Part shown: positions 9,386-60,342 of the stretch, in pieces
Layout of the letters: the number at the start of each line of letters is the position of its first letter
Numbering within the stretch: position 1 is the first letter of the stretch
Assembly (NCBI GenBank): GCA_963714975.1
Contig: CAVQQD010000003.1
Span: forward strand, 224,001 to 288,000
Direction of reading: 5' to 3'
From: an uncultured Gammaproteobacteria bacterium
GTDB taxonomy: Bacteria; Pseudomonadota; Gammaproteobacteria; JAURND01
DNA length: 64,000 nt
The notes under the pieces: generated by a model
Databases searched by the model: none
The model's input: only the letters and a program-made list of their open reading frames with translations
What the model was told of the DNA's origin: nothing
Translations under genes and position numbers: made by a program

Positions 9386-10879
9386 GTGCTACACATCTAT
9401 AATACTCAAAGCCGCAAGAAGGAGCCGTTCCAGCCCATTATCCCTGGTCAGGTGCGTTTATATGTATGTGGTTCGACTGTTTATGATTACTGCCACATTG
9501 GCCATGGTCGCAGCATTATGGTGGTATTTGATGTCGTCACGCGTTATCTGCGTTATTTGGGCTATCAAGTACAATACGTCCGTAATATCACTGATATCGA
9601 CGATAAAATTATTCAACGAGCAAGGGAATTAGGGGAGGATATTTCCCAACTCACTGAGCGTTTTATTCAGGCCATGCACGAGGATGAACGTGCTTTAGGC
9701 GTTTTAGCTCCTGATCTTGAGCCCCGCGCGACCCAGCATATTCCTGACATCATCGCGATGATTGAAAAATTATTGGCCCAGGGTTATGCCTATGTTGCAG
9801 AAAATGGCGATGTTAATTTTGAGATCAGTCGTTTCCCGGAGTATGGGCATTTTTCTAATCAATCGATCGAAAAACTGCGTAGCGGCGCGCGGGTGGATAT
9901 TATTGAAACAAAAAGGGATCCTTTAGATTTTGCGTTGTGGAAACTAGCTAAGCCTGGGGAGCCGAGTTGGGATGCGCCCTGGGGAAGAGGGCGCCCGGGG
10001 TGGCATATTGAATGTTCTGCCATGTCGACTGGTTGTTTGGGGGAACATCTGGATATCCATGGCGGGGGCTTGGATTTGGTATTCCCCCATCATCAAAATG
10101 AAATAGCCCAATCGGAGGGTGCTTTTGGTGGGCGATTTGTGAATTACTGGATGCATGTTGGGTTTGTTCAGGTAAATCGGGAAAAGATGTCGAAATCTCT
10201 GGGAAACTTCCTTACCATTCGCGATGTTTTGGCGCAGTATGATGCGGAAGTAGTGCGTTATTTTATGTTGGCGAGCCATTATCGTAGCCCGATTAACTAT
10301 AGCCAGGAAAATTTACAAAGTGCGCAAATGGCCCTCGAGCGGCTTTATTTATGTTTGCGCGGCTTGCCAGCTACTGCGGAGAATTTAGAGCCCAGCGTCA
10401 TCCCTGCATGGAGGCAGGGATCCAGTTCGCAGGAAGCAAAACTTTCACATCCTAGTGGCTTGGATCCCGGCTTCCTGCCGGGACGACACGATAGGCCGGG
10501 ACGAGACGATATTGCACGTTTCTGTGCAGCAATGGATGATGATTTTAATACGCCGGTGGCTTTGGCGGTGTTGTTTGATTTAATCCGCGAAATCAATGTG
10601 TTATATCAAAAACAGTCAATCGAAATGGCAGCTCGATTAGGGGCGGTGTTGCGAAAATTAAGCGCTATTTTGGGGATTGGCCAGCAAAATCCTGAGACAT
10701 TTCTGCGGTTGGGGATGCCGGCGGAGGAAATTCAACAAATTGAGCAATTGATAACCGCGCGAGAAGCAGCGCGGGCAGCAAAACAATGGCAACAAGCGGA
10801 TCAATTGCGGGACCAATTGGCGGCAATGGGGGTGGTGATTGAGGATAGCGCTCAGGGGACCCTATGGCGCAAGCACTAG
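9386..10879 (+). CDS. cysS: Cysteine--tRNA ligase (with in-frame palindrome insert)
   Basis: [47 protein letters not shown]. Confidence 0.97.
10396..10512 (+). repeat. CGTC-type palindromic element translated inside cysS
   Basis: CGTCATCCCTGCATGGAGGCAGGGATCCA...TGGATCCCGGCTTCCTGCCGGGACGAC, plus an 18-bp unit x2 (10477-10512). Confidence 0.85.
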
Positions 10880-10907
10880 CTCGTTGCCACCGTCCCCGCA
10901 TTCCCTA

Positions 10908-58009: not shown

Positions 58010-59299
58010 ATGAATAAGCTTATCCAAATACTGACAGAAGAATTTCAAACCCGGGTAAATACCTTTACAGATGGTGTAGAGCGAGATATTCATTTCCCTG
58101 AGATCCCGAATAAAGTGATGGTTGCTATTGGTATGAGGCGCACTGGGAAAACCTATTTACTTTGGCAAATAATCACTAAATTATTGCAAACTACCCCTAT
58201 TACACAGCTTTTGTACATTAATTTTGAAGATAATCGCTTGTTACCGATGAGTCAGGAAAAATTTAGTGAGTTACTCGATGCTTTTTATACACTTTATCCC
58301 GAGAACCATGAACGATTATGTTATTTTTTCCTCGATGAAATTCAAAACGTTACTGAATGGCAAACCGTAATCCGTCGTTATCTCGATAGTAAAAAAGTAA
58401 AAATTTATCTCACGGGCTCATCCGCTAAATTGCTAAGCAAAGAAATTGCTAGTTCATTAAGGGGTCGTGCACTTGCAGCTGAAGTATGGCCTTTTAGTTT
58501 TAATGAATTTGCCCAAGCACGGCATTTTTCATATCCACATAAGCCCTGGGGGAAAAAAGCAGATGATCTTTTATTGGCTGAATTGAAAAATTATTTACTT
58601 TGTGGTGGATTTCCTGAAGTAACTTCTTTAGTAGAAGGGGCTCCGTTAGCCGAAGAAGATCGTCGGCGAATTTTGCAAGATTATACTTCAGTTGTCATTT
58701 TTCGCGATATTATTGAGCGCCACAAGATTACTAATATTTCATTGGTGCATTACATGATTAAAACCTTACTCAGGAATGCCAGTGGAAATTTTTCTGTGCA
58801 CAAATTTTATAATGATTTAAAAAGCCAGGCATTTTCTGTCGGAAAGATGACTATTCATGATTACTTAAGCCATATTGAGGACGCCTATTTAGCCTTTATG
58901 GTACCTCTTTATTCGGAATCAGCACGCAAAGTGCAGACCAATCCTAGAAAAATTTATGTCATTGATAGCGGATTAATAAACGCGAACACCTTAAAATTCA
59001 CCGCAGATTTAGGGCATTATTTTGAGAATCTCATTTATTTAGATTTACGTAGGGCAGGGCTCACTATTTATTATTATCTCACGCAATCGCAACCAAGATT
59101 GGAAGTCGATTTTCTTACCCAGGATCCATTGGGAAAGATGCGTTTATTTCAGGTGTGTTGGAATATCCAAGATGCAAAAACCTTAGCACGAGAAACTACT
59201 GCCTTAAATGCTGCTGTAACAGAGTTGCAAGTACAGGGAGAACTCGTGACCCCAGAATCCTATTTCACCTCTTTCTTGCCAGGTGTGACTCGAAGATGA
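58010..59299 (+). CDS. AAA_14 ATPase with DUF4143 domain
   Basis: GMRRTGKT, FLDEIQ, LTGSS, GGFPE, KIYVIDSG, FEN, EVDF. Confidence 0.9.
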   Translation: MNKLIQILTEEFQTRVNTFTDGVERDIHFPEIPNKVMVAIGMRRTGKTYLLWQIITKLLQTTPITQLLYINFEDNRLLPMSQEKFSELLDAFYTLYPENHERLCYFFLDEIQNVTEWQTVIRRYLDSKKVKIYLTGSSAKLLSKEIASSLRGRALAAEVWPFSFNEFAQARHFSYPHKPWGKKADDLLLAELKNYLLCGGFPEVTSLVEGAPLAEEDRRRILQDYTSVVIFRDIIERHKITNISLVHYMIKTLLRNASGNFSVHKFYNDLKSQAFSVGKMTIHDYLSHIEDAYLAFMVPLYSESARKVQTNPRKIYVIDSGLINANTLKFTADLGHYFENLIYLDLRRAGLTIYYYLTQSQPRLEVDFLTQDPLGKMRLFQVCWNIQDAKTLARETTALNAAVTELQVQGELVTPESYFTSFLPGVTRR

Positions 59300-60342
59300 C
59301 CACCACCCCATTAACCTATTACCAGCAAAAACTTGCTTCGGGAGAAATTTTGCCCGAGGCGCAACAGCTGGCGGTGATGCAGCAATTTGAGCTGATTTAT
59401 CAGCAACTGCTGCAGCCAAAAAAGAAGAAATGGTGGTGGCAAAAACCAGCGAGAAATGCTGGAATTTATTTGTGGGGCAATGTGGGAATTGGTAAAACGT
59501 TCTTGGTCGATACGTTTTACTATGCCTTGCCTTTTCCCGATAAGCTTCGCATGCATTTTTATAGCTTTATGCAAGAGGTACATGCCGAGCTAAAAATTCT
59601 GCAAGGAGAAAAAAATCCATTAAAACTTCTAGCAACGAAATTTGCCAAGCGGGCGCGGGTGATTTGCCTAGATGAGTTGATTGTGGCCGATATTGCTGAT
59701 GCGATGGTGTTGGGCGGTTTGCTGCAGGCATTGTTAGCAGAGGGTATTTGCGTAACATTGACGGCCAATGTTTCTCCAGATGATTTATATAAACATGGCT
59801 TGCAGCGTGAACGCTTTTTTCCCGCGATTGACAGCATTAAGCAACACTTGCGGGTTATTCATCTGGCCATTGTCGATGATTATCGTGAACGCCCCCGCTC
59901 TCAAATCCCCCCTACCCCCCTGGTTCAAAGGGGGGAATTACTTTCTTTGGAGGAATATTTTGACTATTTTGCCCAGGGTGTTCAGCCAAGTTTTACTCCT
60001 CTTCATCTTTATGACCGAGAAATCCAGGTCGTGCAACGAGCCGGTGGTGTGGTATGGTTTGAGTTTCTAGCTATTTGCAGCAAGCCGCGTAGCCAAATGG
60101 ATTATTTGGCCTTAGTACAACAATTTCATACGATTTTAGTCAGTAATATTCGCCCCATTTCTGCCGAAGATGTAGATTTGGCGCGCAACTTTATTAAATT
60201 CGTCGACGTTTTATATGATGCACGAACCCGCTTGATTATTTCACCTGAGGTTTCGCTTGATAGCATCTACCCCCGCGGGCGCCTAGCATTTGAGTTTAAA
60301 CGCACTCGCTCGCGGTTATTGGAGATGCGAAGGGCAATGTAG
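59296..60342 (+). CDS. zapE: Cell division ATPase ZapE (AFG1 family)
   Basis: GIYLWGNVGIGKT, CLDE, GLQRERF, FVDVLYD, FEFKRTRSRL. Confidence 0.92.
   Translation: MTTTPLTYYQQKLASGEILPEAQQLAVMQQFELIYQQLLQPKKKKWWWQKPARNAGIYLWGNVGIGKTFLVDTFYYALPFPDKLRMHFYSFMQEVHAELKILQGEKNPLKLLATKFAKRARVICLDELIVADIADAMVLGGLLQALLAEGICVTLTANVSPDDLYKHGLQRERFFPAIDSIKQHLRVIHLAIVDDYRERPRSQIPPTPLVQRGELLSLEEYFDYFAQGVQPSFTPLHLYDREIQVVQRAGGVVWFEFLAICSKPRSQMDYLALVQQFHTILVSNIRPISAEDVDLARNFIKFVDVLYDARTRLIISPEVSLDSIYPRGRLAFEFKRTRSRLLEMRRAM
59903..59936 (+). repeat. AAATCCCCCC-type palindrome inside zapE
   Basis: AAATCCCCCCTACCCCCCTGGTTCAAAGGGGGGA, encoding IPPTPLVQRG. Confidence 0.6.

Follow-up and report, generated by a model that had tools for sequence, protein, structure and literature searches.

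How do short palindromic repeats come to lie inside the reading frames of conserved enzymes, and what becomes of the proteins that carry them? The question is raised by a 64,000-nucleotide stretch of the genome of an uncultured gammaproteobacterium (C3:224001-288000; hereafter the window, meaning the whole stretch that was analysed), in which four genes, cysS, dnaQ, purL and zapE, hold repeat DNA of this kind. Selfish DNA has few ways of creating new peptide segments in conserved enzymes, and palindromic repeats inserted in frame are one of them. A sequence-only reading of the window had placed hairpin stretches in these four genes and had taken them for members of the repeat families found between genes. 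Both statements are borne out: the sequences are where it put them, and each is a copy of a dispersed, multi-copy family. In CysRS, DnaQ and PurL the protein is longer at the site of the element than the proteins it was compared with, whereas in zapE native codons were overwritten. We consider it likely that tagged hairpin repeats spread selfishly through this genome and that purifying selection then left in-frame, translated loops.

Repeat families of the host genome

The host genome comprises 2.56 Mb in three contigs (C1 to C3 below) at 43% G+C, and its nearest named cysteinyl-tRNA synthetase (CysRS) loci belong to unclassified Gammaproteobacteria known as metagenome-assembled genomes (60%), to Candidatus Berkiella (55%) and to Legionella (52%). 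Searched against this genome with blastn-short, the in-gene stretches of cysS, dnaQ, purL and zapE returned 29, 17, 34 and 25 rows, respectively, each stretch itself being counted. Loci were delimited with iterated nhmmer profiles, matches on both strands being merged and deduplicated. This gave 76 loci for family A (the cysS type), 10 for family C (the tail of the dnaQ element), 63 for family D (the purL type) and 99 for family E (the zapE type). Family B (the hairpin of dnaQ) has 30 such loci, but its profile drifted into D, and the true B copies found by DNA search number four. After merging of overlaps, 253 distinct loci remain across families A to E. Membership by both blastn-short and nhmmer ties the in-gene hairpins to the intergenic repeats, which are small, GC-rich, non-coding and located mostly between genes. 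Rfam at gathering scores returned nothing in the window beyond two tRNAs.

A family A element consists of two small hairpins set head to head, each with a CGTC tag, an 8-bp stem, a 4-nt TGGA loop and a TCCAG tail, joined by a conserved palindromic spacer; all 18 full-length copies inspected are head-to-head dimers in which the central palindrome is conserved. The stem of the A arm (TCCCGGCA/TGCCGGGA) is paired in 91% of cells, with double changes. At pair 12-23 we counted GC 36 times, TA 22 times and AT twice, whereas the pairing of one arm with the other at those positions breaks (GA 23, TC 23, GC 10; each locus is counted on both strands in these tallies). Since the hairpin covaries while the arm-to-arm pairing is lost, it is the small hairpin on which constraint acts. 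A CGTC/TGTC-AT end tag and long arms are common to families B, C and D; tandem duplication of the ends is frequent among them, and some copies lie within others. The consensus starts read ..CGTCGTCCC for A, CGTCATTGCGAG for B and TGTCATCCCGAG for D. Family E, a hairpin made of a C-run and a G-run, carries no tag, is unrelated to A-D and folds weakly as RNA (z -1.9 against shuffles). Judged by sequence, at least three kinds of element are thus present inside genes, namely A, the related B/C/D group and E, in agreement with the proposal that several distinct families insert.

The families differ widely in distribution. Family A was detected in four of eight genomes of the same taxonomic family, with 11 to 78 matches in each. 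For the class as a whole we sampled 150 genomes, one per family, with G148 and G046, two genomes flagged as unpublished, included as negatives; B arms at 91-94% identity occur in 12 of these and D arms in one. When up to 3 mismatches are allowed, family E has 25 matches in the host genome, against 0 for a reversed-pattern control, and is present in 2/150 other genomes. No insertion sequence (IS) with ends matching the repeats was found in the host genome. A full-text literature search for the arm sequences yielded unrelated eukaryotic primer matches only, and a literature search on in-frame palindromic repeats in Legionellales found no paper.

Extra segments in three enzymes and a replacement in ZapE

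The clearest case is cysS, a single-copy gene with no second match in the genome, whose element (Table 1) joins two CGTC-tagged small hairpins, head to head, through a palindromic spacer and has a duplicated end (RNA fold z -4.55 against shuffles). CysRS is 36 amino acids (aa) longer than each of 19 orthologues out of 19, all 30 relatives searched align to it in two pieces (residues 1-~330 and ~372-496), and the extra segment falls between residues 329 and 339 of E. coli CysRS. In an AlphaFold2 model built from a 60-sequence alignment (mean predicted local distance difference test score, pLDDT, 91.4; predicted template modelling score, pTM, 0.89), residues 331-372 have a pLDDT of 42-58 and lie between two helices. 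The insert is accordingly a low-confidence loop in the model, as had been expected of such inserts, and is predicted to be floppy and to sit outside the fold.

The element in dnaQ, a gene with no other match in the genome, is a composite of B and C that amounts to 45 codons. Its B palindrome is 96 nt long with 42-nt arms that are 98% complementary, and folds at -87 kcal/mol (z -18.2) into a 42-bp stem; the abutting C unit forms no hairpin of its own (RNA fold z +0.7 against shuffles), and some of the other C loci in the genome occur as inverted pairs. DnaQ exceeds 11/11 orthologues, and E. coli epsilon as well, by ~30 aa between epsilon residues 186 and 210, a site which we take to be the linker from the clamp-binding motif to the C-terminal tail. 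The clean insertions that had been proposed for CysRS and, after the QTSLL motif, for the DnaQ linker are therefore both confirmed by comparison with orthologues.

For PurL the outcome is mixed. The protein matches PDB 6jt9/1t3t over residues 7-60 and 114-573, and gains ~38 aa relative to Salmonella PurL from the D palindrome (fold z -7.7 against shuffles) together with a 24 nt x 3.0 tandem. The proposed clean insertion stands as regards this gain, but the site is a loop that varies in relatives too: those of two other genera have long unrelated segments at the same place, and these segments have no match to the five family profiles.

ZapE departs from the pattern. Here the 45-nt E copy overwrites ~14 native codons without net change in length, and within it the conserved YYWYPL is turned into IPPTPL. 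From DDYR to the EEYF position, the length differs by at most one residue in 11/11 orthologues. The sequence-only reading had listed zapE as a probable case among the insertions and had named equal-length segments in orthologues, beforehand, as the finding that would contradict it; since this is what all 11 orthologues have, the claim falls. No PDB relative of ZapE was found by sequence. In an AlphaFold2 model from 12 sequences (pLDDT 84.5), residues 198-212 have a pLDDT < 50, and the E stretch, like the CysRS insert, is predicted to be a floppy loop outside the fold. The possible A half-copy in pepN goes with a difference of only +2 residues against five orthologues.

Table 1. Positions of the repeat elements and their host genes in the window (position 1 is the first base of the window)
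Feature	Position	Strand	Evidence or remark
Intergenic palindrome, arms CCGTCGTCCCGCGGCTTGTCCGCGGGATCCAG, sister of family A	9253..9337	.	49 nt upstream of cysS
cysS, cysteinyl-tRNA synthetase, 497 aa	9386..10879	+	ORF; PDB 1li5 match E 2e-177 in two pieces
Family A element in cysS	10395..10512	+	nhmmer E 2.5e-27, model positions 2-109
dnaQ, DNA polymerase III epsilon, 268 aa	15871..16677	+	ORF; PDB 5fku_D matches residues 4-177 and 231-263
Family B palindrome, CGTCATTGCGAGGAGC... arms, in DnaQ linker	16419..16514	+	starts 5 codons past QTSLL motif
Family C unit, one arm of a sister palindrome, abuts B	16516..16553	+	nhmmer E 2.8e-12; 38 nt
Weak, doubtful family A half-copy in pepN	19583..19629	+	23 bits, genome-wide E 1.2e-4
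purL N-terminal open frame, 586 aa	33945..35705	+	continues in another frame at 35662-37947
Family D palindrome, TGTCATCCCGAGCGAAGC... arms, in PurL N-terminal loop	34129..34207	+	nhmmer E 1.6e-18; 79 nt
Tandem triplication of D right arm, encodes APRDDKTL x3	34190..34261	+	Tandem Repeats Finder: period 24, 3.0 copies, 97% matches
zapE, AFG1-like ATPase, start codon uncertain	59296..60342	+	ORF; orthologues in 17/20 relatives
Family E element, AAATCCCCCCTACCCCCC..GGGGGG, in zapE	59896..59940	+	45.0 bits, 40/45 positions equal consensus

ORF, open reading frame.

Copies inside genes across the genome

To place the window in the context of the whole genome, a copy was scored as in-gene when the open frame around its locus extends for 50 codons or more in both directions. 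This holds for 49 of the 253 loci (19%), which are spread over 37 ORFs, and for 39/193 at E <= 1e-6; as five profiled families were counted, 37 ORFs is a lower bound. Of 20,000 random points, 65.6% fall in frames so defined, and copies are therefore ~3.5-fold depleted in genes. This genome-wide count of copies in coding sequence, which had been put forward as a check, also qualifies the claim of high density (3-4 genes in 64 kb). There are indeed four genes in the window, but 37 ORFs in 2.56 Mb make about one per 69 kb, and with its four genes the window is about four-fold enriched relative to the genome rate.

Outside the window, 26 of the 32 ORFs with in-gene copies belong to Pfam families (six do not), among them AcrB, GlyS, PrmA, MutL, DnaX, KsgA, Psd, ArgJ, NadE, Lhr, DprA, KdpC, VirB4 and three nonribosomal peptide synthetase (NRPS) genes. 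Ten further genes were compared with up to five same-family genomes. The gain is +39 aa in prmA, +13 aa in psd, +19 aa in glyS and +16 aa in dnaX, in each case against 5/5 orthologues; ksgA gains +19 aa and nadE +18 to +24 aa against 4/4 orthologues, and argJ has two sites, of +13 to +16 aa and +13 aa, against 2/2. The orthologous genes of relatives contain no family match at the same sites, which places the insertions after the divergence from the sampled genera. The ends of some elements are expanded: purL has a 24-nt unit three times over, prmA has three copies of a 15-nt unit, and glyS has repeats as well.

In-gene copies occur in several frames and in both orientations. It had been remarked that no element brings a stop codon, and the frames are indeed open. 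This is, however, not striking in itself: of the 6 frames of a full-length A, B or D copy between genes, 2.8-3.5 are open, compared with 1.6-2.0 for length-matched random segments, so stop-free landings are common. As a control for frame-breaking copies we looked at the 15 loci that have a long frame on each side, both frames being on one strand. Of these, 12 are ordinary junctions between genes and three are candidates for split genes, in an NRPS condensation domain, sucA and ksgA. The sucA gene is apparently split at a family E copy, and the NRPS condensation domain at a family A copy (C1:408476-408506 and C3:750312-750426); the homopolymer runs of E could be a source of sequencing errors at the split sucA. 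The ksgA gene with its family A half-copy is present twice, once intact and once frameshifted, at the C1 and C3 ends. Because the end of C1 overlaps the start of C3 (C1:450259-452120 and C3:10-1865; 1866 nt, 96.9% identity, 14 gaps), the split ksgA is a second, poorer copy of the same locus. The overlap reflects either lower-quality contig ends or two strains.

A small GIY-YIG gene between family D arms

Ssn proteins are small GIY-YIG nucleases with a single domain; they act on single-stranded DNA, which they cut at hairpin repeats, and their own genes are flanked by inverted copies, of 20-50 nt, of those repeats (Chenal et al. 2025, PMC11893778); the repeat associated with Ssn in Neisseria is CGTCATTCCCGCGMAVGCGGGAATCYRG (PMC11893778). 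The main text of that paper does not contain the words 'intragenic', 'within genes' or 'open reading'. The host genome has two GIY-YIG matches, UvrC and a 96-aa ORF (PF01541, 58.7 bits), the latter being its only small GIY-YIG gene. This ORF has no NCBIfam match and a sole PDB relative, 1zg2 (E 6e-4). On either side of it stands a 32-nt D arm, the two arms being inverted and 94% complementary; the unit runs from a D arm through an IS66 transposase fragment and the GIY-YIG gene to the second D arm (L239:1211-1815, equivalent to C3:640676-641280), and a perfect B palindrome is found 900 nt upstream (L239:494-575). As D arms bracket the only small GIY-YIG gene, the short palindromes resemble derivatives of that unit without the gene, and the unit is a candidate for the parent of family D. 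The sequence-only reading had not noticed this tie to the Ssn system.

The association extends beyond this genome. Homologues of the 96-aa ORF are present in 37/150 other genomes of the class, and they are concentrated in those with B arms (9 of 12, against 28 of 138 without; odds ratio 11.8, Fisher p 1.8e-4, with one genome per family). A script found flanking inverted repeats at E <= 1e-3 around 15 of 29 homologue loci; the [CT]GTC[AG]T tag is present on both arms in 12 of these, on one arm in 1 and on neither in 2, which makes 13 of the 29 tagged. By eye, and with a looser cut-off, 16/29 loci are tagged, several of them with the Neisseria NTS consensus and one with B-type arms. The intergenic palindrome upstream of cysS has arms of 32 nt that are 100% complementary, and arms of identical sequence flank a GIY-YIG homologue in genome G013. 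Taken together, the tagged families look like the kind of repeat that flanks genes for Ssn single-strand nucleases.

DUF559 was tried as an alternative partner and rejected: a match occurs in 6/12 genomes with B arms and 39/138 without (p 0.18), a tally that includes G148 and G046, both of which are DUF559-positive and B-negative. The only intact DUF559 gene of the host (C2:141150-141810) is bracketed by inverted copies of another family, of the ..GGGAGAGGGG.. type. Members of this GGGAGAGGGG-type family are present in the window at 8102-8303, 53993-54024, 56735-56766 and 57542-57573.

Origin and maintenance of the in-gene copies

How, then, did these elements reach the interior of genes? In the account that we favour, selfish spread followed by purifying selection, copies would land anywhere in the genome, and those surviving in genes would be the ones that keep the frame, bring no stop and fall in a tolerant surface loop or an inter-domain linker. 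Translation of surviving copies along with the host protein would add 12-45 residues, for the most part disordered, the ends of elements would grow by slippage in steps of multiples of three bases, and in zapE the element would have replaced native codons rather than added to them. Directly observed are the membership of the in-gene stretches in families, their insertion relative to orthologues, the intact frames in single-copy genes, the depletion in genes and the association with a nuclease gene. The loop location of the inserts is predicted from structural models, and from all of this we infer translation, near-neutrality and the mode of movement.

A number of results weigh against this account, or at least against parts of it. 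When the flanks of 60 copies were inspected by eye, target-site duplications were not apparent. In acrB and mutL the copies sit in hypervariable linkers where the net gain is not measurable. In-gene copies score no lower than intergenic ones, with median bits of 84.7 vs 83.5, 65.6 vs 64.2 and 45.0 vs 41.8; such undiminished scores fit a recent arrival, and equally the maintenance of hairpins. The purL gene is split into frames of 586 aa and 761 aa that overlap at 35662-35705, where relatives have one frame of ~1300 aa. One extra base near GAATGTTCG could explain the split, as a real frameshift or as an assembly error, and the host gene may therefore be decaying or mis-assembled. The match of only 96.9% with 14 gaps between the C1 and C3 ends means that the assembly is not error-free. 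In one public run, the only one that matched the stretch at all (0.08 of its words), contigs bridge neither the cysS nor the dnaQ insert; more than 100 contigs of the same run carry the B arm in other contexts. The link to the nuclease also has its gaps. The published degenerate SRM pattern is not enriched in the genome (8 matches vs 6-13 in five block shuffles), and occurs in 4/76 A loci and 0/63 D loci. A cognate nuclease gene is present in this assembly for D only, with none for A, despite its 76 loci, or for B, and family E has no link to a GIY-YIG nuclease.

One alternative is that the in-gene hairpins are kept as working DNA or RNA signals rather than carried as neutral passengers, either as Ssn-type cleavage sites that shield alleles from incoming single-stranded DNA or as mRNA hairpins that tune dnaQ and other genes. 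The preservation of in-gene copies at the level of intergenic ones would suit this idea, as would the near-perfect dnaQ stem and the small hairpins of A arms that stay paired through double changes, and Neisseria SsnA is known to cut transforming single-stranded DNA at such repeats and to reduce its integration (PMC11893778). We nevertheless regard it as unlikely, given that copies are depleted ~3.5-fold in genes, that the inserts lie at differing tolerant sites and are absent from the orthologues of all sampled relatives, and that recent insertion explains the preservation equally well. A bolder combination, in which the in-gene hairpin dimers are live targets of a resident Ssn-type nuclease and the D-flanked gene is the parent unit that seeds them, is speculative, and we give it a small chance of being right. 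If it were true, cysS, dnaQ, prmA and glyS would hold single-strand cleavage sites that bias allele replacement by transformation or recombination. The 25-year-old puzzle of 'protein-coding palindromes', which takes in the Rickettsia palindromic elements (RPEs) and the enzyme-less CGTC repetitive extragenic palindromic (REP) sequences, would then be tied to a defined enzyme family, and the fact that zapE was overwritten without change of length would speak for some way of copying in that differs from simple insertion.

The remaining alternatives fare worse than selfish spread under purifying selection. The inserts might be untranslated, being cut from the mRNA or bypassed by the ribosome so that the ancestral protein length is kept; the stems are very stable, and hairpin-driven bypass exists in phage T4 gene 60 and in yeast mitochondria. 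Yet skipping would make frame and stops irrelevant, whereas 49 loci lie in uninterrupted frames and only 3/15 candidates are broken. The units by which the ends have expanded (24 nt, 15 nt) are multiples of three bases, and the copies occupy several frames and both orientations with no common take-off or landing signals, all of which makes bypass highly improbable. That the inserts are artefacts of assembly or sequencing, with repeat sequence misplaced in genes, draws on the imperfect overlap of the contig ends, the frameshifts in purL and two other genes, and the public-run contigs that did not span the inserts. However, each in-gene copy has a sequence of its own, 82-95% identical to other copies, and all keep the frame, where misplacement would give random lengths, two thirds of them frame-breaking; the same class of insertion recurs in at least a dozen checked genes on all three contigs, and we find an artefact hardly credible. 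Finally, classical MITEs (miniature transposable elements with inverted repeats) or REPINs moved by an IS transposase or a REP-associated tyrosine transposase (RAYT) could be invoked, since three IS200-type Y1 transposase genes are present in the genome, the GIY-YIG gene has an IS66 fragment next to it, and palindromic architecture is common to MITEs. This, too, is very unlikely: none of the five families flanks the Y1 genes, the nearest copy being >2 kb away, and two of the three Y1 genes carry a stop; the end tag is CGTC/TGTC and not GTAG; target-site duplications were not seen by eye in the copies inspected; and CGTC REPs are reported to be without a dedicated transposase (PMC3733652).

Other repeats in the window

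Further repeated sequences were noticed in the window. A composite family with a TCTCCCCTTGTGGGAGA core, 100-200 nt long and with copies 92-97% alike, lies at 4173-4371, 23003-23200 and 47556-47781 and falls outside the five profiled families. A non-palindromic sequence of 56 nt is present in two copies, 95% identical, at 14183-14238 and 53106-53161. Three paralogous coding stretches (2359-3326, 24826-26338 and 41540-42845) are 65-74% identical over several hundred bases and are spaced 22.5 and 16.5 kb apart. On the minus strand, 45853-48930 is a block of direct repeats that have diverged from one another and are spaced 294 and 1080 nt apart; it looks like tandem paralogous repeat-protein genes.

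Comparison with known systems

To our knowledge, what is known of in-frame palindromic repeats comes mostly from Rickettsia, whose palindromic elements were reportedly described by Ogata et al. in 2000 and 2002 and by Claverie and Ogata in 2003. The phenomenon is thus a known one, from RPEs and from CGTC REPs in ORFs, and ours is a dense case in another lineage. In R. felis, 85 of 728 RPEs lie in ORFs (PMC1166351), and reviews treat RPEs as an extreme case (PMC10969869). The elements described here resemble RPEs in behaviour: they are short palindromic repeats, in frame, in unrelated conserved genes and at sites compatible with the fold, they would bring translated extra segments, as RPEs do, and a minority of copies is intragenic (here 49/253). 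They differ in belonging to Gammaproteobacteria, in the slippage of arms in several families and in the one equal-length replacement.

The CGTC-tagged REP superfamily, which includes Neisseria dRS3, RPE-4 and RPE-6 (Di Nocera, De Gregorio & Rocco 2013, PMC3733652), was described mostly from Alphaproteobacteria (PMC3733652), and copies inside ORFs have already been reported for it, many of them in genes for replication and repair and for tRNA synthetases (PMC3733652). Of its published features, the terminal CGTC, with TGTC and CCTC allowed as variants, is found in A, B and D and not in E. A stem of 8-9 bp with a loop of 4-5 nt and a CCA-like tail is found in A arms only, and head-to-head dimers with a conserved spacer are found in A; B and D differ in having arms of 30-40 nt without a hairpin of their own. 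The likening of these repeats to RPEs and CGTC-tagged REPs in the sequence-only reading thus holds, the A arms having the published CGTC-REP features.

Two further systems invite comparison. QMITE1 and QMITE2 of Coxiella burnetii are 150-400 bp long with direct repeats, QMITE2 carrying a GTAG REP (Wachter et al. 2018, PMC5896051), and their overlaps with functional genes are short and C-terminal, at 2-50 bp (PMC5896051). They, too, are small repeat families that overlap annotated ORFs in a gammaproteobacterium, whereas the elements here are internal in-frame loops. With the REPIN/RAYT system our elements have in common the pairing of small hairpins into a unit, a single repeat-flanked gene and hairpins maintained by covariation; REPINs are defined by a GTAG tag and a tyrosine HUH transposase, and neither is associated with the families here.

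A further likeness of the tagged families is with Ssn. A small single-domain GIY-YIG gene lies between inverted repeats tagged CGTCAT/TGTCAT, many copies of the repeat are dispersed through the genome, and homologues elsewhere are flanked by sequences that equal the NTS consensus. The differences are that the published SRM pattern is not enriched and that an IS66 fragment lies within the unit. We present a second dense, multi-family case of in-frame repeats, from a class other than that of Rickettsia, in which a dozen housekeeping genes can be compared cleanly before and after insertion; these comparisons provide natural maps of insertion tolerance for CysRS, the epsilon linker, PrmA, KsgA, Psd and ArgJ. 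What is new is the association of tagged families with an Ssn-type GIY-YIG gene. CGTC REPs have been reported without a dedicated enzyme, and as an Ssn-type gene is now associated with such repeats, their origin and spread become testable with one small protein.

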